Shown one piece after another: positions 8,601-64,000 of a DNA stretch of 64,000 nucleotides. Under the pieces are notes generated by a model. The model saw only the letters and a program-made list of their open reading frames with translations, did no database searches and had not been told where the DNA came from. The stretch lies in NCBI GenBank assembly GCA_946186915.1, contig CAMHOY010000014.1:1243-65242 (forward strand), in the 5' to 3' direction. Position numbers and translations under genes: made by a program. This DNA is from an uncultured Bacteroidales bacterium (GTDB lineage: Bacteria; Bacteroidota; Bacteroidia; Bacteroidales; Paludibacteraceae). How positions within the stretch are numbered: the stretch's first letter is position 1; each line of letters opens with the position of its first letter.

Positions 8601-11519
8601 GAGCACCGCTGTCTGCGCTTTATTAAGAAGCGAGATAGCACGCAGAGGAGCGTTAGTGTTCGCCGCAAAAGCCAGCACGGCATTCGCTACCGACTGCGCG
8701 AGGTTGGTGATCAGCGCTTCGCTATACCATCCGTTGTCGTACTCGACCGCAATACTCGGCACGCCGTCCATCGGCATGATATAGAACGCGATCTTGAATT
8801 TCGGCACGTTCTGCTCCATGGTCTCGTCGGCGAAAACGGGTTTGCCAAAGACGCTATAGTTGCTCAGCACGCCCATCTGGTAAGCGAACATGATCTCCGC
8901 CTTCAAGTCATAATCCGCTGCTACGCGTGCAAACGGATAATCCTCGTGCGCGAGCGTTTGCTCGAAGGACTGCGCGTTCTCTTTAACAAACTCCTCTACC
9001 GTCTGGTTCGCTATCTTCGTAGTCAGCGCAAGGGTGTTGACGAACATTCCCATGGTGTTGTTCACCCGCAGGTTGCTTCGTCCGTTGGAGATGGTGGTGA
9101 TGCAGACATCATCTGTTCCTGCAAAACGTGCCAAGGAATAATAGACGGCGCTAAGGAGCACAGCTGCCGGCGTCACGCCTAATTGCGCTGCATATTTCTC
9201 CGCCGTAGGCATGTCGAAAGGTACGCAGACGCGTCCGTTCTCACCTTGCGGCAGGGCGTTGGTGAGGTCGGGTTGGATCTCGGTGACACTCTCTATTCCG
9301 GTGAGGCGCTCGGCGAAGAAGGCTTGCGCAGCCTTGAAGGACTCGCCTTCCTGCGCAGCTTTCTGCTCCGCCACGAACTGCGGATAGGAGCACATCTCGG
9401 GTTCGATCTCCTTGCCTTCCAGCAGGTCACAAATCTCATGGATGAAGAGGTCGTACGACGCGCCGTCGCACACGAGATGGTGGATGTCGCTCAACAGATA
9501 CAGATTCTTCTCCGTGCGCACGATGACGAAACGGAAAAGCAGGTCTTTCTGCAGGTTGAACGGATGTACGAACTCATGTTTGAAGGCATCCATCTGCGCC
9601 TCTTCGAGCGCTTTCTCGGGTACGTCGACAGCTGCTTCGTTCATCATCTGCTCGTCGATGGTCTGGATGACATCGGCTTCCTGAGTCGCAAAATGCACGA
9701 AGAGTTCGGAGTGGTTGAGCACCGCCTTGCGCACCGCTTGCCGTAATGCGTCGGCCTCTACGTCCAACGGCATCTGAATACAGATCGGCACGTTATAGAG
9801 CGTGGAGGTGGGGTTCTTCATGCATTCGAAATAGACGCCCATTTGAGCGAAGGAGAGAGGAGCTTCGCTCATTTGAGATTGGACATTTGAAATTTGAGAT
9901 TTTTCATTTTCGGTATCACGATGACCGCCTAACATCGCAGCGAGTATCTCATTCTCAATCGCTTGCAATGTGATGCCTTTGGTCATTTGTTTGGCATCGA
10001 GTTGGATGCCGAAACGCTTGAAGATCTGGGTTGCTAACTTGATGGCAGCGATAGAGGAGAGACCCATATAACGCAGGTCGGTCGTGATGCCGAACTCCTC
10101 CATATTGACAATCTTCGCGATGATGTCGTGTAGCTCCTGCTCGAGGACATTGAGGGGAGCCGCAGCCACAGCCTCCTCTACTTCGGGCTTGGGTGCTTCG
10201 GGCTTCGGCAGGGCACGTTTATCGACTTTCTGGTTCGGGTTGAGCGGTATAGCGTCAATCTGCATTGTTACCGCAGGCACCATGTAGGGCGGTTTGCTGT
10301 CACCAATAAAAGCATTGAGATCGTCGATATTGATCTTCTCGTCGCTTACTACGTACGCGGCGATGAACTTACCGCCATCCGGGTAGTCGAAGGCTTGCAC
10401 GGTAGCATCCTTGATACCGGGGAACTCACGAATGATGGCTTCTACCTCTTTGAGCTCGATACGGAAACCGCGGATCTTCACTTGTCCGTCCCGTCTGCCG
10501 ACAAACTCGATATTTCCGTCCTCGCGGTAGTGAACGATGTCGCCGGTTTTGTAGCAACGCAAGCCGTTCCAATCGACGAAGACTTCTGCGGTCTTCTCGG
10601 GTTGGTTGAGGTATCCGAGCGACACCTGCGGTCCGGCTACATAGAGTTCGCCGTCCGTGCCGGTCGGTACTTCTTGACCGTCCTGACCGACCACGATGAG
10701 TCGCGTACCGTTCGTATTGGCTTTGCCGATAGGTATATTGGGTTCGTTCTGCGTCACAAAGAAACTGCTGACATAGACGGTACACTCCGTCGGACCATAG
10801 CAGTTCATCAACTTATACGAAGGCGGATCGAGACTGATAAGTTTCTCGCCGCCCGTACCGAGCCACTGGAGGCCCGATATGTCGGGATAATTGAGCACGA
10901 GCTGCGTCGCCATCTGCGTCGTCATGAAGCAGTGGGTAATGTGCTCGTCCTGAATATATTGGTTGAGGCCCTCCAGGTCAAAACGGATCTCGTCGCCCAC
11001 GATGCAGATAGTAGCACCTGCCATGACGCAGCACCAGAGGTCCATCTGGAAGGCATCAAAACCGTAACCGGCATAAGTAGCGTACTTGCTTTGCGGAGTC
11101 AAGCCTATTGCCTGGACATGGAAATCAAGGAAGGCTAAGATATTCGCCTCGCTCAGCATAACACCTTTGGGAACACCGGTTGTACCGGAGGTATAGAGCA
11201 GCACGAATGCTTCATCACCATCGTACTTGGAGGCATCCTCCCGCATGAATTTCAGTCGTTCCTCGGGATAAGAGCCGTCGAGCGGCATAGCGGTCAAGCC
11301 TGCTTTCGCGATGGCGATAGGTGTCAGCACCATGAGTTCGTTACGGGGCACGATAAACGATGCCACTTTGTCACCGCAACGGGTGACGTACTGCGGATCG
11401 AGAGTGTCCGTCAAACGGTCTGCCTCTGCGAAGGTGATGCGTTTGTCCCCTGCGATGCAGAAGATATCATTCGGACGCTCGGCAACGTGTTTTTTGAAGT
11501 ATTCGATTAAGTGTTTCAT
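5604..11519 (-). CDS. bimodular non-ribosomal peptide synthetase, A-T-C-A-T-R (terminal thioester reductase)
   Basis: A1 core LLYTSGTTGVPKG lies at ~11165-11205 and the T1 motif MGLSSI at 10053-10058. The C-domain HHLVCDG is at 9462-9482. A2 core LLYTSGSTGVPKG is at 8038-8082 and the T2 motif FELGGTS at ~6937-6960. The R domain has LLTGATGYLG at ~6665-6705 and YMRSK. Confidence 0.95.
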   Translation of the reverse strand: MKHLIEYFKKHVAERPNDIFCIAGDKRITFAEADRLTDTLDPQYVTRCGDKVASFIVPRNELMVLTPIAIAKAGLTAMPLDGSYPEERLKFMREDASKYDGDEAFVLLYTSGTTGVPKGVMLSEANILAFLDFHVQAIGLTPQSKYATYAGYGFDAFQMDLWCCVMAGATICIVGDEIRFDLEGLNQYIQDEHITHCFMTTQMATQLVLNYPDISGLQWLGTGGEKLISLDPPSYKLMNCYGPTECTVYVSSFFVTQNEPNIPIGKANTNGTRLIVVGQDGQEVPTGTDGELYVAGPQVSLGYLNQPEKTAEVFVDWNGLRCYKTGDIVHYREDGNIEFVGRRDGQVKIRGFRIELKEVEAIIREFPGIKDATVQAFDYPDGGKFIAAYVVSDEKINIDDLNAFIGDSKPPYMVPAVTMQIDAIPLNPNQKVDKRALPKPEAPKPEVEEAVAAAPLNVLEQELHDIIAKIVNMEEFGITTDLRYMGLSSIAAIKLATQIFKRFGIQLDAKQMTKGITLQAIENEILAAMLGGHRDTENEKSQISNVQSQMSEAPLSFAQMGVYFECMKNPTSTLYNVPICIQMPLDVEADALRQAVRKAVLNHSELFVHFATQEADVIQTIDEQMMNEAAVDVPEKALEEAQMDAFKHEFVHPFNLQKDLLFRFVIVRTEKNLYLLSDIHHLVCDGASYDLFIHEICDLLEGKEIEPEMCSYPQFVAEQKAAQEGESFKAAQAFFAERLTGIESVTEIQPDLTNALPQGENGRVCVPFDMPTAEKYAAQLGVTPAAVLLSAVYYSLARFAGTDDVCITTISNGRSNLRVNNTMGMFVNTLALTTKIANQTVEEFVKENAQSFEQTLAHEDYPFARVAADYDLKAEIMFAYQMGVLSNYSVFGKPVFADETMEQNVPKFKIAFYIMPMDGVPSIAVEYDNGWYSEALITNLAQSVANAVLAFAANTNAPLRAISLLNKAQTAVLDSFNQTEVPYDDTQTIVSLFRKQAAETPDNLAVVYHDVRLTYKEVDERTDTIAAKIYEVLNHQSPITNIQCSDIKSERVVSILINRSEWMVVASLAALKAGCAYQPLDPSYPAERLNFMMKDANASLLIADTDLRPIVNEYSGPVLLTKDLSTLSDSGLSTLSDSGLINPQDLFILLYTSGSTGVPKGCQLEHRNLVAFCHWYHRYYDLHAGDKVAAYASYGFDANMMDMYPALTCGAAVYIIGEDIRLNLPDLNHYFEAEGITHSFMTTQVGYQFAQNCDNHSLKHLSVGGEKLATIAPPANYLLHNAYGPTECTIFTTTYPIHEQEKNIPIGKPLDNFRLFIVDKDLHRVPVGATGELLVSGPQVSRGYLNRPDKTAETYIDWNGLRCYRTGDVVRYLADSNIQFVGRQDGQVKIRGFRIELKEVEAVIREFPGINDATVQAFDYPNGGKFIAAYIVSDSKIDIQALNAFIRDRKPPYMVPASTMQIDVIPLNQNQKVNKRALPAPQLTDTDRDYVAPANDNEKLFCDIFASILNQDKIGATDNFFELGGTSLMVTRVIIEADKAGKHVAYGDIFTHPTPRLLAQFLSGDTDEQTANDQEAAAFDYTGIDAILQRNNLNTFLRGERQELGNVLLTGATGYLGIHVLRELIDSDAKTITCLVRGKDQHDAQRRLRNLLFYYFDRRFDELFGSRLFVVNGDVTNDFSNQLSDISIQTVFNCAANVKHFSKTDDIEQVNIGGAERCVEFCLKTGTRLVHISTTSVGEIWVDRGDGKAVPELSERLLYFGQFLDNRYMRSKFLAERVILEAVARHGLNAKIMRVGNLAARSYDGEFQANFQTNSYMGRLKVFSTLGCCPIDEYDSPAEFSPVNETAKAVVLLASTPKECNVFQPFNNHTDLLGDILAGFEKIGKSIRYVEEDEFQQAILEASKDPKKASLMSALLAYQDMTHGQKAVTIERDNRYTSAVLLRLGFHWSAPDSAYVNRMLIAISQLGFFDE
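8101..8148. repeat. perfect 24-bp tandem duplication inside the NRPS A2 domain
   Basis: AGACCGCTATCGCTCAAAGTAGAA occurs twice in tandem. It is in frame and encodes LSTLSDSG-LSTLSDSG just upstream of the A3 core. Confidence 0.95.
8397..8421. repeat. 7-bp x3 tandem repeat (GTGATTG) inside the NRPS
   Basis: ATTGGTGATTGGTGATTGGTGATTG spans 21 bp, is in frame, and encodes HQSPITN. Confidence 0.85.
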
Positions 11520-51117: not shown

Positions 51118-52410
51118 ATGAGTACAGCGATTGAATTCAATCATGTAAGCAAGCAATACCGCCTCGGCCTGGTCTCAACCAAGACCTTGTCCCATGACAT
51201 CCGCCGCTTCTGGATCACGAACGTCCTCGGCAAGGAGGACCCGTATCTCAAGATCGGCGAGACCAACGACCGTGCCTCCAAAGGCAACTCCGAGTACGTC
51301 TGGGCGCTGCGCGACATCGATTTCAAGGTCGAGCAAGGCGACGTCGTCGGCATCATCGGCAAGAACGGTGCCGGCAAATCTACACTTCTTAAACTACTCT
51401 CCAGAGTAACTGGACCTACTACAGGTACCATCAAAGCACGTGGCCGAATAGGTTCTCTCCTGGAGGTCGGCACAGGTTTCCATCCGGAACTGACGGGCCG
51501 CGAGAATATCTTCATGAACGGCGCTATCCTCGGCATGAGCCGTAGTGAGATTCAGGCCAAACTCGACGAGATTATCGACTTCTCCGGCTGCGAACGCTAT
51601 ATTGACACCCCGGTGAAACGCTATTCGAGTGGTATGACCGTCCGTCTGGGCTTCGCCGTGGCTGCTTTCCTCGAACCCGAGATTCTCGTTGTGGACGAAG
51701 TCCTTGCCGTCGGCGATGCCGAGTTCCAAAAGAAAGCCATCGGCAAGATGAAAGACGTCTCCACCGGCGAAGGCCGCACCGTCCTTTTTGTGAGTCATAA
51801 TATGGCTTCTATCCGAAGCCTTTGTAAGACAGGTGTGGTGCTTGACAAAGGAAGTGTTGCTTATATGGGGAATGTATTTAATGCAGTTGATTTTTATTTG
51901 TCACAAAATGCTTTTGTGCAAACAGCGACGCATGTAGATATTGAGGAGTCTCAGCACGATAAGAATCGTAGTATGGATGCGAAGATTATTATGGCTGAGT
52001 TTGTGGATGATAAATCTGTCTTTGCATCCGATGAAGATATTCGCATTCGTGTCAAAGTGCAATCTAGAGTTAATATCAATGAATGCCGGGTAAATATTGG
52101 TATATACAATGCAGATGAGACGCCAATAGGGTCATATTCATCTGATGCATTCTTTAAACTTAAAGTTGGAGAACTTAAATTACTAGAATATACATTGCAT
52201 CGTCCTAATCTTGCATTGGGCTCATACTCCCTAGCTTTCTCTGTGGGGATGGGAAATGCGCAAACAGGGGAAACCAATTTGGATGTGGTTCATCATGTGC
52301 TGACTTTCGATATAGATAGAATGTCTAAAGATGAAAAGAAGTTTTTCGTAAAGTGGGATAAGAGTTGGGGAACCATGCGTTTTGAAGCCTCGGTGAAAGA
52401 AATTGCGTAA
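51118..52410 (+). CDS. polysaccharide/O-antigen ABC transporter ATP-binding protein (Wzt/TagH-like) with a C-terminal extension domain
   Basis: Walker A GKNGAGKST, signature YSSGM, Walker B ILVVDE and H-loop FVSHN. A ~180-aa beta-rich C-terminal domain follows. Confidence 0.85.
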   Translation: MSTAIEFNHVSKQYRLGLVSTKTLSHDIRRFWITNVLGKEDPYLKIGETNDRASKGNSEYVWALRDIDFKVEQGDVVGIIGKNGAGKSTLLKLLSRVTGPTTGTIKARGRIGSLLEVGTGFHPELTGRENIFMNGAILGMSRSEIQAKLDEIIDFSGCERYIDTPVKRYSSGMTVRLGFAVAAFLEPEILVVDEVLAVGDAEFQKKAIGKMKDVSTGEGRTVLFVSHNMASIRSLCKTGVVLDKGSVAYMGNVFNAVDFYLSQNAFVQTATHVDIEESQHDKNRSMDAKIIMAEFVDDKSVFASDEDIRIRVKVQSRVNINECRVNIGIYNADETPIGSYSSDAFFKLKVGELKLLEYTLHRPNLALGSYSLAFSVGMGNAQTGETNLDVVHHVLTFDIDRMSKDEKKFFVKWDKSWGTMRFEASVKEIA

Positions 52411-52469
52411 TTGCTTCAGAAAAAGGAAACATCCAGTCAGGTTGGACACCATATAAACACATTTAGTAT

Positions 52470-53366
52470 ATGCTTTTTTCGATACTAATACCAACATATA
52501 ATAACGAGCAAACTATTGCAAAAGCAATTAATTCGGCATTAAATCAGAATTATGCAGATGAATATGAGATTATAGTCGTTAATAATGCATCTACAGATTC
52601 AACACTGCAGAAGATACAATCCTTTTCAGATTCCCGAGTGAAAGTATTTTCGAATGATCATACAGTACATATGTACGAGAATCATAATCTATGCATTCAG
52701 CATGCCCAAGGGGATTATGTAATCTTTTGCCATGCGGATGACGAATTATGCCCAAGTTCGTTAACCATATTATCGGAGGAGTTAAAAAAAAGATATTTTC
52801 CTTCAAAATGTATGATGTGGGGGTATAGTATGATTCGCGATTTTTCTCGGCACAAGAATGATTTTAAAATCAATCAAATGTTTAGTGGTGAGATTGCAAA
52901 GCGTGTATTTGTACAAGGTGGTTTAACTCCTTCGGGCACATGCTTTTCTCGGGAGGCTATGGTTTTGATAGGTGGATTTCCAATTGTGAGAGATACATAT
53001 GATATAGACTGGATTTTTGAAACAATTGCTGCTTTTAATGGATGGGAATTTGAGATGATTGACCGTTTATTATATAGAAGAGAATATGCCTCTACATATA
53101 CGGATGATCTTGCTCCTGAAATTCGTCAAAAACAGGTTAAAATAGCAGCAAACTCCATTTACTCTCATTTAAATTCCAAGCAGCAATATGAATTAAAATG
53201 CATGTGGTGGGAAGGAATAGCAGGCAACTTTGACCATATATTTGCAACGTCGCCTCCTACCAAAGAAGAACGGTTGGAAGCGTTAATGCAACGATATAAA
53301 AACGCTCCTTGGAAAGTATGGAAACTCCTCAAGTGGGTTCTTGTAAAGTACGAAATTTGGAAGTAA
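52470..53366 (+). CDS. family 2 glycosyltransferase
   Basis: FSILIPTYNNEQTIAKAINSALNQ...IIVVNNASTDST...CHADDEL. Confidence 0.85.
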   Translation: MLFSILIPTYNNEQTIAKAINSALNQNYADEYEIIVVNNASTDSTLQKIQSFSDSRVKVFSNDHTVHMYENHNLCIQHAQGDYVIFCHADDELCPSSLTILSEELKKRYFPSKCMMWGYSMIRDFSRHKNDFKINQMFSGEIAKRVFVQGGLTPSGTCFSREAMVLIGGFPIVRDTYDIDWIFETIAAFNGWEFEMIDRLLYRREYASTYTDDLAPEIRQKQVKIAANSIYSHLNSKQQYELKCMWWEGIAGNFDHIFATSPPTKEERLEALMQRYKNAPWKVWKLLKWVLVKYEIWK

Positions 53367-53436
53367 AGATTCGAATTGTTCCGCAAACTCCTAACCGGTA
53401 GACCAATACAACTATAAATGAAATTGAACAAATAAC

Positions 53437-54456
53437 ATGGATAATCCATTTAAAGAATATATTGAGACAGTACAAGAATTAGTCGCTTTGGAAGAAAAAA
53501 GCGAGCTTGCCTCGTATATATCAGAATCTAATATTGAAGCGGTTTTTGTCAGGTATGACAACTGGAATGGAGGAACAGAGTTCTATGATATAGCGATTAG
53601 TGTTCCAATCAAGGTGTTCGCGAGGATTAGATCAAAAATATCTGACGAGGAACAAACTATACGTAATGCTTTTAATGACGCAATGCATGGTGCAAATGAT
53701 TCCGTAAGGCTTAATGAAGTGAAGATTGTTCCGAGTAAATCAGCATCTGTCTCAAATATATCAATCACAGATGACGAGTCTATGTGGAAATATAATTATT
53801 ATCGATTATTCATTAGCCATCTCACGAAAGATAAAATAAGGGCGTCATATATTAAAGAAATTTTATTGCGATATGGAATAGATTGTTTTGTGGCCCATGA
53901 AGATATTTCTCCATCGAAAGAATGGCAGACAGTTATCGAAAATGCTTTATCTTCCACGGATGCACTCTGTGCTATTTTATCTCCAAATTTTATCAAGAGC
54001 CAATGGTGCGATCAAGAAGTAGGGTTCGCTTTAGGACGTCGTAAACTGGTTATACCAATCAGCTGCGGCGTAATTCCCTATGGCTTTATTGGGAAGTGGC
54101 AGGCAATTAAATCTGATGGCAAATCAAGGAATCAAGTTGCAAATGATGTGTTTAAGGCTATATGTACCAATGAGATTACGCGAAGCGGATATCTTGAGAA
54201 GCTGTTAAACCTAATAGTGGGCGCAAAATCGAAAGATGAAGCTTTGCAATTCTTAAACGTTTTTAAAGATATTAATGAAGTTGAAAAAAGATATGTAGAT
54301 ATCCTATATTCCCATTATGCAGATAATCACATATTAATGGAAAATGAATGCGTGAAAATAGCAAATCCCATATTTGAGCAGAATGGTCTTGAGACAATCA
54401 AGAAGAAGTCGCCCATAGAAACTCCAGTACCTCAAAATATAGATTTACCATTCTAA
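53437..54456 (+). CDS. TIR-domain protein with unknown N- and C-terminal domains
   Basis: Central TIR signature: LFISHLTKD...CFVAHEDISPSKEW...AILSPNFIKSQWCDQEVGFALG. The Glu after the WC motif is conserved. Confidence 0.75.
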   Translation: MDNPFKEYIETVQELVALEEKSELASYISESNIEAVFVRYDNWNGGTEFYDIAISVPIKVFARIRSKISDEEQTIRNAFNDAMHGANDSVRLNEVKIVPSKSASVSNISITDDESMWKYNYYRLFISHLTKDKIRASYIKEILLRYGIDCFVAHEDISPSKEWQTVIENALSSTDALCAILSPNFIKSQWCDQEVGFALGRRKLVIPISCGVIPYGFIGKWQAIKSDGKSRNQVANDVFKAICTNEITRSGYLEKLLNLIVGAKSKDEALQFLNVFKDINEVEKRYVDILYSHYADNHILMENECVKIANPIFEQNGLETIKKKSPIETPVPQNIDLPF

Positions 54457-54461
54457 ACATA

Positions 54462-55163
54462 ATGACTGAAACAAATTTAATAGAGTTTTTTTGTCAACCA
54501 ATGAATTTCGTGCAAGGGATTATTTTATTAACTCTATCTATAGGGTTATATTGGTTAATTGCATATTTTAGAAAATCAGGAAGCAATACTGCCGACAAGA
54601 AGGATAAGCGTGGGATTTCTTATGAGGGCAAAAAAGGCGAGAATATAGCAGATGAAGAAGATCAGGTTTCTCAAACGCAAAAAGAAAGGTTAATAAAAAT
54701 CTTATATATTGCAGAAAAGATTAACCAAGCGCAAAACAAATATTTTCTATACTTGTACGATCTTTCAAACAGAACGAGGTTAGATAAGTTAGTAGAAGAT
54801 ATCAATGAACTATTAACTGATTTATATCACGAGCAAAGATTAGCAAATATTTTTCTACCAGATGAACAGCAAAAGATGATGGATGAATTAGTTACAAATG
54901 CTAGTGGTATCGTGGTCGAGTTGTCAACAAACTCTTCAAATGCTGGTAATTGTATATCTGCCTTTAATCATTTTATGGATTATGCCAATATTCATAAAGA
55001 AGAGCAAAGCACATATTGGGAACATTCTAAAAAATGTATGGGGCAAATTGAAGAAATGAAAAAGAAAAAACTGATGTTTAAGGAAGAATATCAGCAATCA
55101 ATACAGAAATATGCAAGTTGGTTAGGTGAGTACATTAGACAGAATATAAAAGTAATGGAGTGA
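54462..55163 (+). CDS. single-pass membrane protein with an all-helical C-terminal region
   Basis: TM segment GIILLTLSIGLYWLIAYF, a Lys-rich linker and then ~150 aa of predicted helix. It begins 5 nt after the TIR stop. Confidence 0.5.
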   Translation: MTETNLIEFFCQPMNFVQGIILLTLSIGLYWLIAYFRKSGSNTADKKDKRGISYEGKKGENIADEEDQVSQTQKERLIKILYIAEKINQAQNKYFLYLYDLSNRTRLDKLVEDINELLTDLYHEQRLANIFLPDEQQKMMDELVTNASGIVVELSTNSSNAGNCISAFNHFMDYANIHKEEQSTYWEHSKKCMGQIEEMKKKKLMFKEEYQQSIQKYASWLGEYIRQNIKVME

Positions 55164-55263
55164 AGTCATAGTGGCGTGGGTTGTGATTGTCGGACTAAAC
55201 TCTAATAGTCTAATACTACATTTCTTTTCTAAGATGTGAAATAAAGAAAAGTTTAGCAATACC

Positions 55264-57042
55264 ATGGTTGAAATATGTTATTTCTTTATACAAAGTTTTC
55301 GTTCTCTACATGAAATAGGAATCAGTCTGGATGCGCATTATTTGTATTCAATCGATAAGGAGAAAAGAGAGATAATGATAAGACCGAATCCTACTTATGT
55401 GAAAGGGTTCTGGTCTGAAGGTATATCATCTATTTCTGCTATTGTCGGGAATAACGGAGCAGGAAAAACATCTGCCTTACTATATATGATTCAAGCATTA
55501 GAGGAAGGAAATGGAGAGGATGAAGTGATGGCAATTATCATATATAGGCAGAATGGAGTATTATATGCTTATATGCCGGAGAGTTATAGTTATGGCTATA
55601 GTTTAATATGTGATATCTCAGAACCAATTCATTTGGTAAAACAAAGGCCAAGATTGAATATATTTTATTATTCGTCATATTTCCGACCATATCAAAATTG
55701 GTTCGAACCGGGCGAAGGAGAATTTAGCGGTGTATATAATGCATCTGATACATGGCGATTGATAAAAGACTATCAAGATTATGCTAATATAGATACGATG
55801 CATCGGACAGAATCTGTCGGCGAGCATATGGACGCCCTACATATTCAAGACAACAACAGAATAGTGCAGCTAATTTGTGACAGGGAGTTGCGTGAACTTC
55901 TGCCAAAGAATACAATCCCACAATATATTATCATTAGTCCGAATATGTCAGGTTACGACCGACTGAACTACGAGCGAAGAAAAAAGGATCCTCGGGGGGA
56001 CGGGATTTCTTTACCTTTATTCGAATCGTCAGAGGAGAAAGGCCTGGCTGATATAGTAACTGCGAGTTTGTGCAGTATCGGAGTTGAGCACGCAATGTTA
56101 TCTGACTATGTCCAAAATATTCTTGATAAATGGGCAGACTTATTCAAAGAAAAAAAGAATGTGCAAACAGCATTGGCAGAATTAGCGGATGAGTTTATTG
56201 AAGTGCATGAGCATATTCAAGAGTTGCAGGAGGTTGTTCTTTTTTTGAAAGATACATGCGAGAAAGGTGATGATATCGATGTGTTGTATATCGATTCCAA
56301 TAAGCCGGACAGTTACGAATGTATTAATAAACTGAAGGAATATTTCTCGATGCGCTCCTTTGTTGTGGCGCATTATTTTGATTTGTATTTTTCTCATGTC
56401 CCTTATTCTACTTCTCGATTGAGTTCTGGAGAATATGACATGCTCAAATTTTTCTCTCGGTTATATGATGCAGTCTGCATACAGCCGAGTCGCTTTGACA
56501 ATCTGACCAGCCCGCAATTATTATTGATTGATGAGGCAGAGAATAGCTATCATCCAGAATGGCAAAGAAAGTTTGTAAGTCTGTTAGTGAAGTTCACGCA
56601 AGCACTTTATGGCAGAACCGGAAATCATAGAGCATTTCAGATTATATTGACCACCCATTCCCCTATTCTATTGTCGGATATTCCCCGAATGTTTGTCAAT
56701 TATCTCGAAAAAGATGAAGAAACAGGACTAGTGTCAGTATCAAGTCGACAACCAGAGACCTTTGGCACGAATGTTTTTGAATTGTATAAGCATGCGTTCT
56801 TTATGGATAAAGGGCTGATTGGGGAGTTTGCTCAAGATAAAATAAGGGGTGTCCAATATGCGATAGAGCATCGCACTCTTTCCAGAGATGAAATCTTGCA
56901 AACGATAGAGTTAATAGGAGATAAAGCGATAAAAATTTATTTTTATTCGTTATTGGAAAGAGATGGCGAGGAAGAAATGCTGTCATATTATGAGCATAAA
57001 GTATTAGAACTAAAGGATAATATACATGCAGCAGATAAATAA
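55264..57042 (+). CDS. ABC-like AAA ATPase (AAA_15/21 type; Septu PtuA-like)
   Basis: Walker A GNNGAGKTS, Walker B LLLIDEAENSYHP and TTHSPILL. Confidence 0.75.
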   Translation: MVEICYFFIQSFRSLHEIGISLDAHYLYSIDKEKREIMIRPNPTYVKGFWSEGISSISAIVGNNGAGKTSALLYMIQALEEGNGEDEVMAIIIYRQNGVLYAYMPESYSYGYSLICDISEPIHLVKQRPRLNIFYYSSYFRPYQNWFEPGEGEFSGVYNASDTWRLIKDYQDYANIDTMHRTESVGEHMDALHIQDNNRIVQLICDRELRELLPKNTIPQYIIISPNMSGYDRLNYERRKKDPRGDGISLPLFESSEEKGLADIVTASLCSIGVEHAMLSDYVQNILDKWADLFKEKKNVQTALAELADEFIEVHEHIQELQEVVLFLKDTCEKGDDIDVLYIDSNKPDSYECINKLKEYFSMRSFVVAHYFDLYFSHVPYSTSRLSSGEYDMLKFFSRLYDAVCIQPSRFDNLTSPQLLLIDEAENSYHPEWQRKFVSLLVKFTQALYGRTGNHRAFQIILTTHSPILLSDIPRMFVNYLEKDEETGLVSVSSRQPETFGTNVFELYKHAFFMDKGLIGEFAQDKIRGVQYAIEHRTLSRDEILQTIELIGDKAIKIYFYSLLERDGEEEMLSYYEHKVLELKDNIHAADK

Positions 57043-57967
57043 AAATAGTGGGCGATTGGGTTTTGACGGACAGTTTCGGAAATGGGAAACAATAGAAGAT
57101 GAATTCAAAACGAGATTCCTATCTGGAATAATAACCGAGTTACAAACTATGCAGCAATCTTCAGACCCGAAATTTCACGGATTGTTGCGATGGTGTATTG
57201 ATAATACTGTAGATTGGATTGTAGCTAAGCCACTTGCATTGAAAACGGCGAAAGAAACAGCTGATAGATTGGGATATACGGAGTTGCTAAAAGGAGATAA
57301 GATATTCCGCGACCAATTAAAAAATGCATACGGATATGACCATGATAAATTGTTGTTTTTAGCAAATTGGTTAAATGTGAAGACTTGTCCGTATTGCAAT
57401 ATGCATTACACGCTTTATGCAGAGGACTATATAAAGAAAAGAACGATTCATAAAATGGCGAAATTCCAGTTTGACCATTTCTATAGCAAAGCAGAATATC
57501 CGATGTTTGGCATGTCGATGTATAACTTGATTCCATCGTGTGCATCTTGTAATCAAGGCAAATCGAAAGGTGAACTCAGTTTGGATTTTCATCCATATTA
57601 TACGGATATAGGAAGGAATTTTAAATTTGAGGTAAAGAATCCAATACCGCTTTTGATTGGGAAAGATGAAGATGATTTGGATGTCCATTTAATGCCCATA
57701 AATGGGGCGAATCTGACTGACTTTAAGAATAAATTCCATATAGAAGGATTATACCAGCGTCATAAAGATGTGGCACGAGAGGTGTTTGCTAGAGCATATG
57801 TTGATGCATATTATGGTAATTGGATGAACTTTGCTTTTCTGGAAGATCAAAAATTAGCAGAAAGGATAAGTAAAGGATTTTATTATAGCGAGGATGAAAT
57901 TGAATTGCGCCCTATGACTAAATTCCAACAAGACCTGTGGAAACAGGCGAAAGGAATAATTGGGTAA
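57026..57967 (+). CDS. HNH endonuclease (Septu PtuB-like)
   Basis: CPYCN...FDHF...YNLIPSCASCNQGK (CxxC-DH-N-CxxC). It overlaps the ATPase gene by 17 nt. Confidence 0.7.
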   Translation: MQQINKNSGRLGFDGQFRKWETIEDEFKTRFLSGIITELQTMQQSSDPKFHGLLRWCIDNTVDWIVAKPLALKTAKETADRLGYTELLKGDKIFRDQLKNAYGYDHDKLLFLANWLNVKTCPYCNMHYTLYAEDYIKKRTIHKMAKFQFDHFYSKAEYPMFGMSMYNLIPSCASCNQGKSKGELSLDFHPYYTDIGRNFKFEVKNPIPLLIGKDEDDLDVHLMPINGANLTDFKNKFHIEGLYQRHKDVAREVFARAYVDAYYGNWMNFAFLEDQKLAERISKGFYYSEDEIELRPMTKFQQDLWKQAKGIIG

Positions 57968-59203
57968 TTGTTGGGTGTGAAGAGTAACGAAGGACTGAAC
58001 ATATCATCCAAAGAGTTATCTCCTGAAGGGCGTAAACAACTGTGTGCCACGTTAGGGCTAAATATGCTTGCTTATCGAGTGCAAGCAAATTGGTTATTTG
58101 CGCGCCTTCAAGAGAAACAAGAAACAAATCAGGATTTACTATTTCGAATAACCATCATCAGTATGGATTTGTGTGCGTCTATTCGTGCATGTCTGCGATA
58201 TGAGAACTCTTATGAGCGAAGGTATCATATCAAGTATATGATAGTTAATCTATACGAAGCATACAGCGCATTTTATAATGAGGCTTCGGATAGAAAATCG
58301 TATATAGCCAAATGGGAAAGTAGAAATCCTTCCATAAAGGATGATGAAGTGTATGTAGCATTATGCAAAGAGTTAGAAGGATTGAGAGTACAATTACATG
58401 ATGATATCAAAGATTCGCGTAATAGTTTTGCGCATTATGATGACGATCCTATAGAGACTGCAAAATTCATACTCGGCATAGATAGCGAAGAAAAACCAAC
58501 GAGATGGAGTTGCGATTTGCTTAAGGTTTTTCATATGATGAAGAAGGTGTGTGAAACGCGACATAAATTCGTTATTGATGCGTCGGTACAGTCTATCTCG
58601 TTAGAGACAATTATAGTGGGATTGGTTCGTAAACAGTTGAGAAGCAATAAGGATTTGATAGAATGTGTAATGGAGGTGTCGGGGACAGCAGAGAAAGATT
58701 TGCGAGAAGACATTTGCTCGTTTGAGTTTATCAAAAAGTATGGCGATAATAGTCAAGAGATAGTTTTGCTACTCATGAGAATCAATGTCTTGATTCAAAT
58801 CATGCGTGCTGATTTGGCATCGGCAGTAAAGGCTTGTATTTATTCGGATTCAGATATGGAATGTGTGATGCAAATCCGTAGATTAGTTATCATCCGGCAG
58901 GAAGGAATTGGACATTTGCAAGATTTGTGGAGTCAGATGCCGGAAACGCTTATTGATAAGGAGGATAATGCGCATATAGAAGCGATAAAGAATGAGATTC
59001 TAAACGGAGAACGGAACAAATTGCTTCACTATCGTTACAGGAGTAGCGATTATATAAAGTTCTGCTATGCATATTGCTCTAATAGTCTTAATATGATTAA
59101 TGGATTGATTGATGTGCCACCATTGCTGAATGAGTTAACTGCTCTGGAACAAAGCCTGACACGAAAATTGCTGAGAGTTAGAGACGAAAATCTCCATAAT
59201 TAG
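57968..59203 (+). CDS. helical protein with two Rx4H motifs (tandem HEPN-like)
   Basis: RNSFAH lies in the first half and RNKLLH in the second, each at the end of a ~190-aa helical unit. It starts directly after the HNH stop. The start codon is uncertain (TTG at 57968, first ATG at 58064). Confidence 0.5.
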   Translation: MLGVKSNEGLNISSKELSPEGRKQLCATLGLNMLAYRVQANWLFARLQEKQETNQDLLFRITIISMDLCASIRACLRYENSYERRYHIKYMIVNLYEAYSAFYNEASDRKSYIAKWESRNPSIKDDEVYVALCKELEGLRVQLHDDIKDSRNSFAHYDDDPIETAKFILGIDSEEKPTRWSCDLLKVFHMMKKVCETRHKFVIDASVQSISLETIIVGLVRKQLRSNKDLIECVMEVSGTAEKDLREDICSFEFIKKYGDNSQEIVLLLMRINVLIQIMRADLASAVKACIYSDSDMECVMQIRRLVIIRQEGIGHLQDLWSQMPETLIDKEDNAHIEAIKNEILNGERNKLLHYRYRSSDYIKFCYAYCSNSLNMINGLIDVPPLLNELTALEQSLTRKLLRVRDENLHN

Positions 59204-59267
59204 AGCTATTAATAGGTGAAAAAATACTTGTTTTGATTACAAAATAAAGAAAAAAAACATTTTTGTG

Positions 59268-59298
59268 TCCATATACTTGTGTATATGGATTATTTTTT
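59268..59298 (+). terminator. rho-independent terminator
   Basis: TCCATATAC-ttgt-GTATATGGA followed by TTATTTTTT. Confidence 0.75.
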
Positions 59299-59307
59299 GT
59301 AATTTTG
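59276..59307 (+). promoter_or_regulatory. promoter of the second GT2 gene, nested in the terminator hairpin
   Basis: cTTG at 59276-59279 lies in the hairpin loop. TAATTTTG at 59300-59307 follows 20 bp later. Confidence 0.55.
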
Positions 59308-59333
59308 TACGCTAAATTGTGATATAAAATCAA

Positions 59334-60191
59334 ATGAAAACCAACCAACCATTATTTTCGGTACTGATTGCCAATTATAATAATGGCAAATATCTGATGG
59401 ATGCGGTAGAGAGTGTCCGTCAGCAGACGTATGCGAACTGGGAGATTGTTCTGGTGGATGATGCATCTACGGATAACTCCAAAGAATTATACAAGGAGTT
59501 AGAAAAAGACGAACGTATCCATATCTATCGCAATGATAAGAATATGGGCTGCGGCTATACGAAGCGTCGATGTGCTGAGTTGGCAAAAGGAGACTTGTGT
59601 GGTTTTTTAGATCCGGATGATGTGTTATTACCAAATGCGATAGGGGATAGTGTGAGGAATCTGGAAGCACATCCGGATTGTGTGCTGAGTTTTTCAAGGT
59701 TCTATACTTGTGATGAGAAATTGAACAAGACGGGTGAGTGCCGATTATTAGAACTGAATGGCAAGAGTTATTTCGAGAATCGTGATTATTGTCCCGAGCA
59801 CTTCGTCGCATTCCGTAAAGAGGCGTATGATAAATCGGGGGGAATAGATGCAACTCTGAAAGCTGGAGTAGACCAAGATTTGTATTTTCGGTTGGAAGAG
59901 GTAGGCGAGGCAGTGGTCCTTAATAAATTCACGTATCTGTATCGACAGAACACGAATGCATTGACATCGAATCCATATTGGTGCTATTATTGGAATACAA
60001 TTGTGCGGCATAATACTTGTCAACGTCGCGGCTTGCCGGATAAGGACTATGCGTATGCGGACTTCTTGCAGATAGTGACAGAGAATGAAAAATATGCACA
60101 AGAACAAGTAGTGAAGATGCAACAATCCAAAGCCTACCGCCTAGGTAAATTGTTGCTCAAACCATTTGGATGGATGAAGAGAAAGAAATGA
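59334..60191 (+). CDS. family 2 glycosyltransferase
   Basis: FSVLIANYNNGKYLMDAVESVRQQ...IVLVDDASTDNS...LDPDDVL. Confidence 0.85.
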   Translation: MKTNQPLFSVLIANYNNGKYLMDAVESVRQQTYANWEIVLVDDASTDNSKELYKELEKDERIHIYRNDKNMGCGYTKRRCAELAKGDLCGFLDPDDVLLPNAIGDSVRNLEAHPDCVLSFSRFYTCDEKLNKTGECRLLELNGKSYFENRDYCPEHFVAFRKEAYDKSGGIDATLKAGVDQDLYFRLEEVGEAVVLNKFTYLYRQNTNALTSNPYWCYYWNTIVRHNTCQRRGLPDKDYAYADFLQIVTENEKYAQEQVVKMQQSKAYRLGKLLLKPFGWMKRKK

Positions 60192-60216: not shown

Positions 60217-60627
60217 ATGGCATCTAAAACTTACACCTTGAATTTTATTGGTTATAAATGGGAGAAAGATTTGCCTAATGAGACAGGTATCTATCTCACG
60301 TATACAGTAAAATACAATGAAAACGAACAAAAGTATTATCTAGATAAACTAGTTTATATTGGGGAATCTGAGGATATAAAAGAGCGCCAGGCTGAACATT
60401 TTGCAGATGGAGACTATCCTCGGGGTACGAAATTAGCATATGCATATGCTTTGTTATCAGGTGATGAGAATCATCGTAAACGATGTGAAGCTGCTTTGAT
60501 ATTCAAAGTAAAACCCGAATGGAATACAGCAAACAAACAGTCATTCAACTATGAATCAACTACTGTAGATTCAGTTGGAGAGCACTTTGGCATCCCCGAA
60601 GAATTCATCGTGAGTAGATTGATTTAG
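60217..60627 (+). CDS. stand-alone GIY-YIG-like nuclease domain protein
   Basis: GIYLTY...LVYIGESEDIKERQAEH...CEAALI...WN. The GIY, YIG, R, E and N positions are in the expected order. Confidence 0.55.
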   Translation: MASKTYTLNFIGYKWEKDLPNETGIYLTYTVKYNENEQKYYLDKLVYIGESEDIKERQAEHFADGDYPRGTKLAYAYALLSGDENHRKRCEAALIFKVKPEWNTANKQSFNYESTTVDSVGEHFGIPEEFIVSRLI

Positions 60628-60687
60628 AAAAGCATAGAAGGCATATCAACTTGGTAAAGCGTTGTTGCGGTTGAGAAGGAAATAGTT

Positions 60688-61869
60688 ATGTTTGAATCTA
60701 TAGTCATAAAATATAATAAACACTATCATACTCTCGGTAATATAATCGAGTGCTTGTTGTTTTATGACGACGTGAATCTTATTGTCGACAAAATAGAGGA
60801 TTTGCCATCCTTGTGGGCAAAAATTGGAATAGATGGATTAATCCGACTTAAAAACTATGGACTACATCTATTTATGTCGACAAGCACAATTGGATGTGGA
60901 GATGTAACAGGGAATGGAGAAGATGTATACTATTTTCATTTATGTGAAGAAAGTATGCGACATCGTATTTGCGAAAAAGCGGTTAAGGAATTTTATGAGA
61001 CAGAGACATTAGATTCGAAAAAACAAAAAATCGTGCAACTCTATCATGATGCATCCGAGGATTTCTCATACCCAGAACGTGCGAGAGAGGCAATGCATGA
61101 TGATATATACCAGCATTTCGTACATAAAGAAATACTTCAAGCTCAACTAAAGGAGATAAACTCACCGCTTTCTATGTTTGATCCGCATAATAAGTATGAG
61201 TTTAAAAAAGTATCTAATGGCTTTGTCTTTAACACTACATTGTTGACCGGAGAGTTAGAAGAACAAGCACGTAGGGAAGGCTATGTAGATATGCAATTCA
61301 GACATGCTACATTTTTGATTAAGCTTACTGAAATGTATGGAGTAATGGATTTTGCTGCAGAAAAAGATAGTGCTCTGTGTGTTACACCTGCTGAGTCTAT
61401 TATTGTTTCATGTAAGCAAAAGGATATACTACAGAGATATTCAGAAGAGCATACTCAAATAGAGAATTTCGAGAAATTAGAGGTGTCTTCGTTTGCGAGC
61501 ATAGCAGAGGTTGTGGATTCAGGAGAAAAGTCCATTGATGAAATATGCGAATTGCTTGATTGTGCACAAGAATTTAAGGATTGGAAAAGAAGTTTGTCCA
61601 ATGAAAGTGATTTCTTGGTAGAATATCAAAAAGCACTGCAATCTAATTTGCCGTGGGTGCAGAGATTACCTATTAAATGGACTCGTCTAATACTCACATC
61701 CGGAATAGGCCTTATTCCTCTAGTAGGAAGTGTATTAGGCCCTGTTGCAAGCGGACTGGATACCTTCTTGATTGACAAGTGGCAAGCAGGTGGTTGGAAA
61801 CCGGCACAGTTTGTAAATGGTGAACTGAAGCGGTTTGTGAGCGAAATGAAAAAGGATGAGACACGATAA
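60688..61869 (+). CDS. hypothetical protein with a C-terminal hydrophobic/Gly-rich segment
   Basis: 393 aa with no recognisable catalytic motif. The C-terminus ILTSGIGLIPLVGSVLGPVASGL is probably membrane-inserting. Confidence 0.45.
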   Translation: MFESIVIKYNKHYHTLGNIIECLLFYDDVNLIVDKIEDLPSLWAKIGIDGLIRLKNYGLHLFMSTSTIGCGDVTGNGEDVYYFHLCEESMRHRICEKAVKEFYETETLDSKKQKIVQLYHDASEDFSYPERAREAMHDDIYQHFVHKEILQAQLKEINSPLSMFDPHNKYEFKKVSNGFVFNTTLLTGELEEQARREGYVDMQFRHATFLIKLTEMYGVMDFAAEKDSALCVTPAESIIVSCKQKDILQRYSEEHTQIENFEKLEVSSFASIAEVVDSGEKSIDEICELLDCAQEFKDWKRSLSNESDFLVEYQKALQSNLPWVQRLPIKWTRLILTSGIGLIPLVGSVLGPVASGLDTFLIDKWQAGGWKPAQFVNGELKRFVSEMKKDETR

Positions 61870-61898
61870 TCGAAAATGGAAAAACTAAAACAATACAA

Positions 61899-61906
61899 TA
61901 TATTTG
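61899..61906 (+). promoter_or_regulatory. possible -7 box for the DUF262 operon
   Basis: TATATTTG lies 25 nt upstream of the ATG. There is no good -33 element. Confidence 0.4.
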
Positions 61907-61930
61907 TCAAATTTTTAATAGTTTAATATT

Positions 61931-63100
61931 ATGGAAGAACTAGATGAAAAAATGTATGATGGTGACTACGATGTGAATGAGGATGACGTTAATGTTACCG
62001 AATACAACATATCTGTAGCGCCTAATGATTTTAACATTAAGACAATTTTTGACTTTATAGAGCATGGTGTTGTTAAAATCCCAGCATTTCAAAGGAATTA
62101 TGTCTGGGATATTAAACACGCATCAAAATTAATAGAGTCTCTACTCATTGGCGTACCCATTCCGCAAGTATTCTTGTATGAAGAGAAGAAGAATAGTTTT
62201 TTAGTAATAGATGGACAGCAACGCTTGATGACTATTTATTATTTTATGAAAAAGCGTTTCCCTCGTAAGGATAAGCGTGTGGAATTGAGACAAATATTTG
62301 ATCAGAAACATACAATACCGGATGAAATTCTTCATGATAATCAATATTTTAGTGACTTTAACTTAGTGCTTCCTGAAAATTTACCAGATAAAAAAAACAG
62401 GTTTAACAAGAAAAATTATGCCACATTAAATGACGAAGATAGAATATCCTTTGAACTAAAGACGCTAAGAAATATTATAGTCAAGCAAGCAGTAGTTGAA
62501 GAGGATGACTCTGTGGTATTTGAGATATTTAATCGTCTTAATTCCGGAGGCGTCAACTTAAAACCGCAAGAGATACGCACTAGTTTATTTCATTCGGCTT
62601 TCTATGATATGCTTTATCGCATAAACCTAATAGAACAATGGAGGTACTTGCTGACGAATGAGACACCAAATATTAATATGAAAGATGTCGAAATCTTACT
62701 TCGGGGATTTGCTATGTTAGTTCTTCATGGGGAGTATAAACCAAGCATGAATAAATTTTTAAATGTATTCTCTAGAAAAGCACAGAGTTTTAAAGAAGGG
62801 GATATTGCGTTTTACGAAGGTTTATTTGTCCGGTTTTGTGAAATGATGTCGGCATTAGAAGACAATTCGATATTTTTAACAAACAAGAATCGATTTAATA
62901 TATCTGTTTACGAGGCGGTGTTCACTGCGTTATGCGAAGAGGCATATATTGCTAAAGACGTGTCTCTTATTAAGGAGACAACCATAGAAAAGATTAAAGC
63001 ACTTAAAGAGGATCCTGCATTTTTAAACGCTTCCTTGCAAAGCACAGCTAGCTCTAATAATGTAACGATTCGTATTAAGAAGGCGAAAGAAATGTTATGA
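61931..63100 (+). CDS. DUF262 (ParB/GmrSD N-terminal-like) protein without a DUF1524 nuclease domain
   Basis: IPAFQRNYVW and VIDGQQRLMT motifs. Confidence 0.85.
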   Translation: MEELDEKMYDGDYDVNEDDVNVTEYNISVAPNDFNIKTIFDFIEHGVVKIPAFQRNYVWDIKHASKLIESLLIGVPIPQVFLYEEKKNSFLVIDGQQRLMTIYYFMKKRFPRKDKRVELRQIFDQKHTIPDEILHDNQYFSDFNLVLPENLPDKKNRFNKKNYATLNDEDRISFELKTLRNIIVKQAVVEEDDSVVFEIFNRLNSGGVNLKPQEIRTSLFHSAFYDMLYRINLIEQWRYLLTNETPNINMKDVEILLRGFAMLVLHGEYKPSMNKFLNVFSRKAQSFKEGDIAFYEGLFVRFCEMMSALEDNSIFLTNKNRFNISVYEAVFTALCEEAYIAKDVSLIKETTIEKIKALKEDPAFLNASLQSTASSNNVTIRIKKAKEML

Positions 63101-63645
63101 GTACGGCGGTAGATAACATATGGCAAGAGTATGTGTCTGTGCGCGACCTTTTAACCGAATTGAAAGAAGTTTCTGCATTGAGCGATTACACAAATACTAT
63201 GCGTAAGGTAATAATTTTATCTTGCGGTAGTTATTTTGAGCATGAAATGACAGAAATGTTGAAGGGTTATGTGTTAGAAGCAAGTAATGGTAATGAACTT
63301 ATTGCATCATTTCTTGAAAAACAAGCTATACAGCAGCGGTATCATACCCTATTTGATTGGGGTAAGCAAGACGAACCGGGTCAACCAAGTACGTCCGCGA
63401 AAAAATTCTGGAAACTATTTGGGAATGATTTTTGCACGAATGTGGAGATAATAATCAAAGAGAAGCCAGATGTTAAAGAATCGCAAGAGGCATTTCTGGA
63501 ATTAGGACATTTGCGTAATATATTAGTACATAGCAATTTCGCTGACTATATTTATGCAGATAAGACACCGGAAGAGATTTTTTCGTTATATCAGAAAGCA
63601 AGTAAGTTTATTCCTTTTATTAAGGAAAAGTTAAACGAGCAATAG
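63097..63645 (+). CDS. small HEPN-like protein
   Basis: Rx4H motif in ELGHLRNILVHSNF within an all-helical 182-aa protein. An ATGA overlap links it to the DUF262 gene. Confidence 0.55.
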   Translation: MSTAVDNIWQEYVSVRDLLTELKEVSALSDYTNTMRKVIILSCGSYFEHEMTEMLKGYVLEASNGNELIASFLEKQAIQQRYHTLFDWGKQDEPGQPSTSAKKFWKLFGNDFCTNVEIIIKEKPDVKESQEAFLELGHLRNILVHSNFADYIYADKTPEEIFSLYQKASKFIPFIKEKLNEQ

Positions 63646-63744
63646 CAGGACAATAATCAAGAGCGGAGTATGGAGGAAAGATGATGTCGAGATTTGGGCA
63701 AAGAATGGGGAGCAGATATTGAATTAATAATACAAAAATTATAT

Positions 63745-64000
63745 ATGGGAGCAATATTACATAAACTTATTTCAATACACGGGATTGGCAAATTCTGTAA
63801 GTATGATTTAGTAAAACCAGGATGGAATGGAATCTTTTCGGATTGTAATGCAATCTATGCAGACAACGGCAGTGGGAAGACGACATTTACGCAGATTTTA
63901 AAATCGCTGAGTAAAGAGTCTGACATCAAAACTTTGCAGAAAAGGAAATCCTTTGATTATAGTGAAGATGTTTTGATTGACATGTTGGCATCAAATGGTA
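63745..64000 (+). CDS. AAA_13-type (RloC/PrrC-like) ATPase, N-terminal part (runs off the window)
   Basis: ISIHGIGKFCKYD....IYADNGSGKTTFTQILKSL. This N-terminal layout is typical of the family. Confidence 0.55.
   Translation, partial: MGAILHKLISIHGIGKFCKYDLVKPGWNGIFSDCNAIYADNGSGKTTFTQILKSLSKESDIKTLQKRKSFDYSEDVLIDMLASNG

Follow-up and report, generated by a model that had tools for sequence, protein, structure and literature searches.

A probable tandem-HEPN gene behind a Septu-like PDC-M62 pair, read as an independent cassette in a Bacteroidales polysaccharide locus

We analysed a 64,000-nucleotide (nt) stretch of contig CAMHOY010000014.1 (assembly GCA_946186915.1, positions 1,243 to 65,242), from an uncultured Bacteroidales bacterium of the Paludibacteraceae, here called the window, and in it three consecutive forward-strand genes that a first-pass annotation, made from the letters alone, had read as one defence system. 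The first (55264..57042, +) encodes an ABC-type (AAA_15/AAA_21) ATPase of 592 amino acids (aa), the A component of a Septu-like PDC-M62 pair, whose Walker A (GNNGAGKTS), Walker B (LLLIDEAE) and TTHSP motifs were read in the translation. The second (57026..57967, +) overlaps it by 17 nt and encodes a 313-aa HNH nuclease, the B component of PDC-M62, in which the series CPYCN...FDHF...CASCN was read. The third (57968..59203, +; 411 aa if translated from TTG) encodes a probable tandem HEPN-like protein of an uncatalogued family, interpreted here as an independent cassette. Its two R-N-x3-H motifs, DSRNSFAHYD (58412..58441, +; R151, N152, H156) and GERNKLLHYRY (59006..59038, +; R349, H354), are present in the translation as originally described. 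The terminator announced behind the third gene was also found, at 59267..59307 (+), as a 10-bp hairpin (59267-59290) and a T-run, followed by TAATTTTG at 59300-59307.

The first two genes are Septu-like, as the first-pass annotation had held, with PDC-M62A/B as their best PADLOC matches and PtuA chains as the nearest in the PDB. The ATPase matched PADLOC PDC-M62A (PDLC04735) with an expectation value (E) of 5.1e-70 over residues 3-588 of 592, and the HNH protein matched PDC-M62B (PDLC04743) with E 1.4e-40, the PADLOC PtuA (6e-16) and PtuB (1e-6) models being much weaker. The corresponding NCBIfam equivalogs scored 48.4 bits (PtuA) and 11.7 bits (PtuB), far below their cut-offs of 500 and 150 bits. 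Pfam domains AAA_21 (1.8e-15) and AAA_15 (5.8e-11) were detected in the ATPase, the match of the HNH protein to Pfam HNH (E 0.0054, 17.3 bits) lay under the curated 21.4-bit cut-off, and the PDB chains closest to the ATPase were those of PtuA (9kjx, 8ee4; E 1e-5 to 2e-4). The window pair shares with Septu and PDC-M62 an AAA_15/AAA_21 ABC ATPase gene followed by an overlapping HNH gene; held against Septu in the strict sense, it has the Walker A/B ATPase and the HNH partner but misses the PtuA/PtuB equivalog scores. We conclude that the pair is a Septu-like PDC-M62 system, already known in kind, in which, by analogy with PtuA/PtuB, the ABC ATPase would control the HNH DNase. PDC-M62 is itself a computational candidate; in a survey of the Bacillus cereus group, 203 of the 244 PADLOC calls dropped as duplicates of Septu were PDC-M62, and PDC systems were termed unpublished candidates (PMC11811056). 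A third gene belongs neither to Septu nor to PDC-M62, and the PADLOC run that settled the first-pass annotation's doubt as to whether the trio was catalogued did so for the pair and left the third gene without a model.

The third protein likewise matched no Pfam or NCBIfam family. A word-indexed search of 5.8 billion clusters returned only 10 relatives, 68-92% identical, and an HMMER profile search of 1.8 billion representatives returned 62 (as clusters), most of them about 500 aa long and 17-21% identical. Some, 210-280 aa long, have a single domain with the same pattern of motifs and are possible precursors of the double-HEPN proteins. A profile search of genome contigs with a narrower alignment yielded a single locus. 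Searches of viral contigs, phage records and plasmid records returned no relatives, and the idea of a phage or plasmid origin of the gene was set aside. The open reading frame (ORF) does begin at the nucleotide after the HNH stop (TTG, 57968), as first noted, and the actual start probably lies later: close homologues start about five residues downstream of this TTG, so that GTG 57977 or TTG 57971 is the probable start and 3-9 nt, not 0, separate it from the HNH stop.

The two-unit build proposed for this protein was borne out by alignment of its halves with each other (hhalign, probability 99.1%, E 1.5e-18), in which the two RNxxxH motifs fall in register. Conservation of the Rx4H residues, which the HEPN assignment implied, was examined in 58 full-length relatives, and both R and H positions were kept down to 17% identity. 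In the first motif, R151, N or D at position 152, and H156 occurred in 58/58; in the second, R349 was kept in 53/58 and H354 in 55/58, three of the misses being gaps, and the residue after R349 was variable, with N in just 24/58. The first motif has the form described for the HEPN superfamily (Rx4-6H with a polar N, D or H after the R). Column conservation in a 38-sequence alignment identified E97, R151, H156 and E298 as invariant, and K89, Y157, D158, D282, R304, R349 and H354 as near-invariant. With the same alignment, AlphaFold2 (AF2) returned an all-alpha model with a predicted local distance difference test (pLDDT) of 90.1 and a predicted template-modelling score (pTM) of 0.89, the latter indicating one compact body; this model superseded an unusable one (pLDDT 47) obtained from 11 close homologues alone. 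The order of its helices (53-77, 81-102, 127-156 bearing R151-H156, and 175-198) is compatible with a four-helix HEPN core whose third helix carries the motif, as in ApeA and HepT.

Further links to HEPN proteins came from other members of the family. Pfam HEPN_Apea matched two of the 38 family members (best E 0.0014), PADLOC Cas13-ApeA matched one of them (E 3.3e-6), and Pfam HEPN was found in the single-domain relative P0063 (E 0.019); scans of the half-domain consensuses and of seven further members with Pfam gave no HEPN match. An alignment of RiboL-PSP HEPN proteins, built from the one that the window itself encodes downstream, was compared with each half by hhalign. The best alignments registered on RNxxxH with scores of 21.8 and 22.7, against 13.0±2.6 and 12.5±2.3 for column-permuted controls, which reached the observed score in 1/100 and 0/100 cases (P about 0.01). 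The links to HEPN families are thus weak at the level of sequence and all in the same direction, and we regard it as likely that the third protein is a tandem HEPN.

The expectation that the third gene would be syntenic with the pair elsewhere, as a three-component system under one ATPase sensor demands, was not borne out. The trio recurs in four further metagenome contigs (L013-L016, in our numbering of the comparison loci), all from the lineage of the window and with HNH and intact ATPase products identical to the window's, and the PDC-M62 pair accompanies the third gene solely in this lineage. In L016 (2711-5243), the ATPase gene and a 233-aa gene further upstream are each split into two ORFs while the neighbouring TIR gene and the HNH and third genes are intact, either through decay of the ATPase or through an assembly error. 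In all four diverged relatives of the pair (L017-L020; 77, 61, 55 and 52% identity) the ATPase gene lies directly upstream of the HNH gene, and the genes that follow encode a FemAB-like acetyltransferase, a 1246-aa SEC-C protein, a KAP nucleoside triphosphatase (NTPase) and an unrelated 514-aa protein. When every fetched locus was searched with the family profile, 0/4 of these pairs had a third-family member, which also disposed of the 514-aa gene of L020 as a candidate member. Altogether the third family spans 13 distinct contexts with differing or no partners, and the M62 pair is found in 0/12 of those other than the window's.

Third-family genes are repeatedly embedded in defence islands. 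Upstream of the homologue stand Avs8/PD-lambda-4A-like proteins of 1275-1279 aa in L001 and L008, a PDC-S35 TIR protein and a 426-aa protein of no assigned function in L005, a type IIG restriction-modification (RM) enzyme in L024 (with a 213-aa protein and an LmuB-like ATPase downstream), an SMC_N/AAA_13 ATPase in L032 (with SIR2-HerA downstream), and RhuM with a 253-aa protein in L034 (with Thoeris nearby). The member in L030 lies behind a cluster of 728-, 423- and 334-aa genes, and those in L012, L023 and L027 stand alone behind 0.75-1.3 kilobases (kb) of non-coding DNA, with Dsr1 nearby in L027. About 400 nt upstream of the stand-alone member in L023 (7516-7625) are five tandem 22-nt repeats (AAAAAGTCAGTCTTTTCAATAT-like, with iteron-like spacing); repeats upstream of the stand-alone members, these included, were not common to other loci.

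The boundaries of homology are those of the gene itself. In comparisons of the window with the other Bacteroidales loci, DNA homology starts at 57989-58001, no more than 35 bases into the ORF and at the start codon that relatives use, and it ends at 59182-59321, at or just past the terminator; the shared block is the gene and, in most loci, its terminator. The ratio of non-synonymous to synonymous substitution rates (dN/dS) of the gene was 0.13-0.16 in every pairing, whichever the neighbour, and dS was strongly mosaic along it. The third gene is under purifying selection, and is kept by selection as its neighbours are exchanged.

The hairpin behind the third gene is not specific to it. Together with TAATTTTG it forms a recurring intergenic module of about 80 nt, in which the hairpin CCATATAC-TTGT-GTATATGG is preceded by an A-rich run and followed by a T-run and TAATTTTG, and which lies between unrelated genes in the window (59239-59321), twice in L001 (near 9338 and at 11092-11143), in L005 (near 9320) and in L008 (14135-14305). 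TAATTTTG has the form TAnnTTTG, which we take to be the Bacteroidetes -7 promoter motif, and the module is probably a terminator joined to a promoter of Bacteroidetes type. An interpretation of the hairpin as an attC site of integron type was set aside in view of this plain appearance as terminator and TAnnTTTG and of its position between unrelated genes. In the window, 59267..59307 marks the end of one transcription unit and the restart for the next glycosyltransferase gene. A further element, TAAATTTG at 57622, upstream of the third gene, is a candidate internal promoter site. No Rfam match (including the abiF RNA, RF03085) was detected around the third gene and no repeat or CRISPR array in 52-64 kb; with the upstream repeats not being shared either, a guide or antitoxin RNA for the third gene was rejected.

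The block of genes at 53.4-59.3 kb is a low-G+C defence islet between two family-2 glycosyltransferase (GT2) genes of a polysaccharide locus; G+C is 33-40% from about 52 kb onward, the three-gene block included, and 45-54% upstream. Going by sample names, the host is probably a Bacteroidales bacterium of the rumen. The islet consists of independent modules on one strand, which probably share one transcript ending at the 59267 hairpin. More generally, the polysaccharide loci of these Bacteroidales-like genomes appear to act as long read-through operons into which promoter-less defence cassettes are swapped at gene boundaries.

We favour, with moderate confidence, the interpretation that the third gene encodes a double-HEPN effector acting on its own and sits, as a cassette lacking a promoter, in a defence islet within a polysaccharide locus, and that the ATPase/HNH pair is a separate PDC-M62 module; most likely, the third gene is a separate defence gene that simply shares the transcript of the pair. 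The two homologous helical HEPN-like domains of the chain would pack as an intramolecular pseudo-dimer, so that both Rx4H motifs would contribute to a single composite RNase site in the manner of Cas13 or of HEPN homodimers. The protein would stay silent until phage infection, its presumed trigger, when host or phage RNA would be cleaved and translation stopped in a defence of the abortive-infection type. In this lineage the gene would have no promoter of its own and would depend on read-through, which would account for its tight junction with whichever gene lies upstream. Since the loci are one-strand polysaccharide clusters in which cassettes need no promoter, the 0-11 nt junctions need not imply partnership, and the gene is read as autonomous. 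That it is the founding member of a family of compact double-HEPN RNases (about 400-500 aa) absent from the catalogues, acting as lone anti-phage effectors with a CRISPR-independent and separately evolved intramolecular HEPN dimer, is put forward tentatively, as a proposal with slightly less than even chances.

Several observations weigh against the autonomous reading. Close homologues lie directly 3' (0-11 nt) of another defence gene in 4/4 Bacteroidales contexts, several distant relatives (L024, L032) also abut NTPases, and the gene may be functionally coupled to variable partners. A single-chain HEPN pair would be expected to be constitutively toxic, yet neither the Rfam search nor the repeat scan revealed an inhibitor, antitoxin or regulatory RNA. 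The HEPN fold that the first-pass annotation had assumed was backed by the conservation of the Rx4H residues and not by structure comparison: Foldseek, run with the confident AF2 model against the PDB and BFVD, gave no significant match and no HEPN protein, returning only G-protein-coupled-receptor and tape-measure noise. Searches of PDB sequences with third-family profiles (A2 and A4) found nothing, and no Pfam HEPN model reached its cut-off in the window protein.

These points feed three other explanations, none of which we consider likely. A single system of ATPase, HNH nuclease and tandem HEPN, in which the ATPase sensor would govern both a DNase and an RNase, would suit the common strand, the 17-nt overlap followed by a 0-9 nt gap, the single terminator after the third gene, and the persistence of the trio in four other contigs. 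Those contigs, however, are of one lineage with identical HNH and intact ATPase products, the four diverged M62 pairs precede other genes instead, the pair is missing from the remaining third-family contexts, nucleotide homology breaks at the start of the third gene, and L016 keeps its HNH and third genes intact beside a split ATPase; we judge this arrangement improbable. It is unlikely, too, though several NTPase neighbours lend the idea some weight, that the tandem HEPN is a non-autonomous, portable effector or accessory serving varied NTPase sensors (the PDC-M62 ATPase, Avs8-like STAND proteins, Lamassu- or RloC-like ABC ATPases). The close spacing of homologues behind defence genes agrees with it, as do the Avs8/PD-lambda-4A-like NTPases that make up two of three such partners, the order HEPN, 213-aa protein, LmuB-like ATPase in L024, and the ATPase directly upstream in L032. 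The partners are, however, mutually unrelated and include non-NTPases (the type IIG RM enzyme, the 426-aa protein, RhuM with the 253-aa protein), three members stand alone, NTPases are common enough in defence islands for adjacency to be expected by chance, and Avs proteins normally carry a fused effector of their own. We assign a low probability to the view that the third protein is no RNase at all, its R and H residues serving in ligand or nucleic-acid binding, regulation or anti-defence within a non-HEPN helical fold. The failure of structure and sequence searches to reach any solved HEPN protein would accord with this, as would the often non-polar or variable residue after R in the second motif; against it stand the R[N/D]xxxH[Y/F]D signature, invariant within an all-alpha domain, the four weak database links, all of which lead to HEPN families with nothing else consistent, and the repeated embedding of the family in defence islands.

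Set beside known HEPN systems, the proposed autonomous effector would act like the single-gene HEPN defences (ApeA, AbiD/AbiF and HEC-08) and be built like Cas13, as a member of none of them. With Cas13 it shares two HEPN-type Rx4H motifs per polypeptide, from which an intramolecular composite RNase site may be expected. Cas13 goes with an adjacent CRISPR array and has a crRNA-binding lobe, and its smallest known member has about 775 aa, compared with 411 aa here; the locus lacks the array and RNA signals searched for above, and PDB profile searches and Foldseek revealed no similarity of sequence or fold. The halves of the third protein are moreover recognisably homologous to each other, a difference from Cas13 that points to a recent, independent duplication. 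ApeA (Gao_Ape), a HEPN anti-phage enzyme that cleaves transfer RNA, is likewise a single-gene HEPN defence found in defence or RM contexts, has insertions between its helices and the catalytic motif on the third of its core helices, and belongs to the group whose Apea-type HEPN models provide the sole family-level database links of the third family. It differs in having one HEPN behind N-terminal and Mid domains and in dimerising and forming decamers or dodecamers, whereas the window protein has two HEPN-like units and itself matches no Apea model. AbiD/AbiF (Abi_2) and HEC-08 are also stand-alone helical proteins, with an R-phi-xxxH motif on which their toxicity or defence depends, and are placed in defence islands or among other systems; they carry one HEPN per chain and form homodimers, and no Abi_2 or DUF3644 match was obtained for the third protein in Pfam. 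AbiF is in addition held in check by the abiF RNA, which Rfam did not detect at the third gene.

Other genes of the islet and its surroundings deserve brief description. The polysaccharide setting begins upstream with a Wzt-type ABC transporter ATPase with Wzt_C (51118-52410; domains seen on the identical 430-aa gene of L013), and over 51118-60191 defence genes are inserted among glycosyltransferase genes, with G+C falling from about 0.50 to 0.36 near 52 kb. The same type of locus hosts relatives in L001, L005, L008, L012, L018 and L020. Upstream of the pair and outside it, at 53437..55163 (+), the gene of a 339-aa TIR-domain protein (Pfam TIR_2, 4.9e-17) lies 5 nt ahead of that of a 233-aa protein of no known family, which by eye has a hydrophobic N-terminal stretch. 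The two genes occur together only in the window lineage (L013-L016), there alongside the M62 pair, and possibly make up a TIR system of two genes. Behind the islet, the final 60 nt of the GT2 gene (60129-60188) are 92% identical to L008 9389-9448, about 170 nt past the third-gene homologue there; no GT2 gene follows at that site, and the likeness may be a remnant of earlier recombination.

Downstream, L013-L016 are identical to the window up to a 136-aa GIY-YIG-like gene (60217-60627) and carry different cargo beyond it: a patatin, a DprA-like protein and a kinase in L013 and L015, and a TIR_2 protein in L014. The cargo of the window in 60217-64000 is a 393-aa protein and an NsnA-like pair, and the region past the GIY-YIG-like gene looks like a strain-variable defence hotspot. 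The NsnA-like pair (61931-63645) consists of a 389-aa DUF262/GmrSD_N protein (PADLOC NsnA 4e-57, PD-T4-2_A 2e-37) whose gene overlaps by 4 nt that of a 182-aa RiboL-PSP HEPN protein (Pfam 1.6e-16; no PADLOC model), and looks like a further defence pair with a HEPN component, distinct from the genes above.

Among the comparison loci, motifs resembling Rx4-6H were noted by eye in the products of genes that precede two distant members of the third family: RNKLGAH and RNFCCSH in the 728-aa protein and RNAIQH, behind a CxxC...CxxC N-terminus, in the 423-aa protein of L030 (1537-5992), and RNLYMH in an 871-aa protein upstream of the family member in L032 (1449-5994). The 641-aa ABC ATPase of L032 gave a faint match to AAA_13 (PF13166), presumably the RloC/PrrC-type ATPase family. 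Related SEC-C-motif proteins (phmmer, about 1e-9) are encoded directly behind the third-gene homologue in L012 (9296-11299) and directly behind the PDC-M62 pair in L018 (7423-11163), and are another recurrent resident of such islets.

For annotation, the ATPase/HNH pair should be labelled PDC-M62/Septu-like, and the third gene should be annotated apart from it. The third gene defines a family missed by Pfam, NCBIfam and PADLOC, and the chief puzzle that it poses is how its product could be kept silent when no inhibitor, antitoxin or RNA is visible. If active, the protein would be a small candidate RNase, and, if the autonomous interpretation is true, the new biology would lie in how a covalently paired, potentially always-on HEPN site is held in check with neither antitoxin nor guide RNA in view. 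With this family, a single-chain enzyme with two HEPN domains may have arisen a second time and independently.

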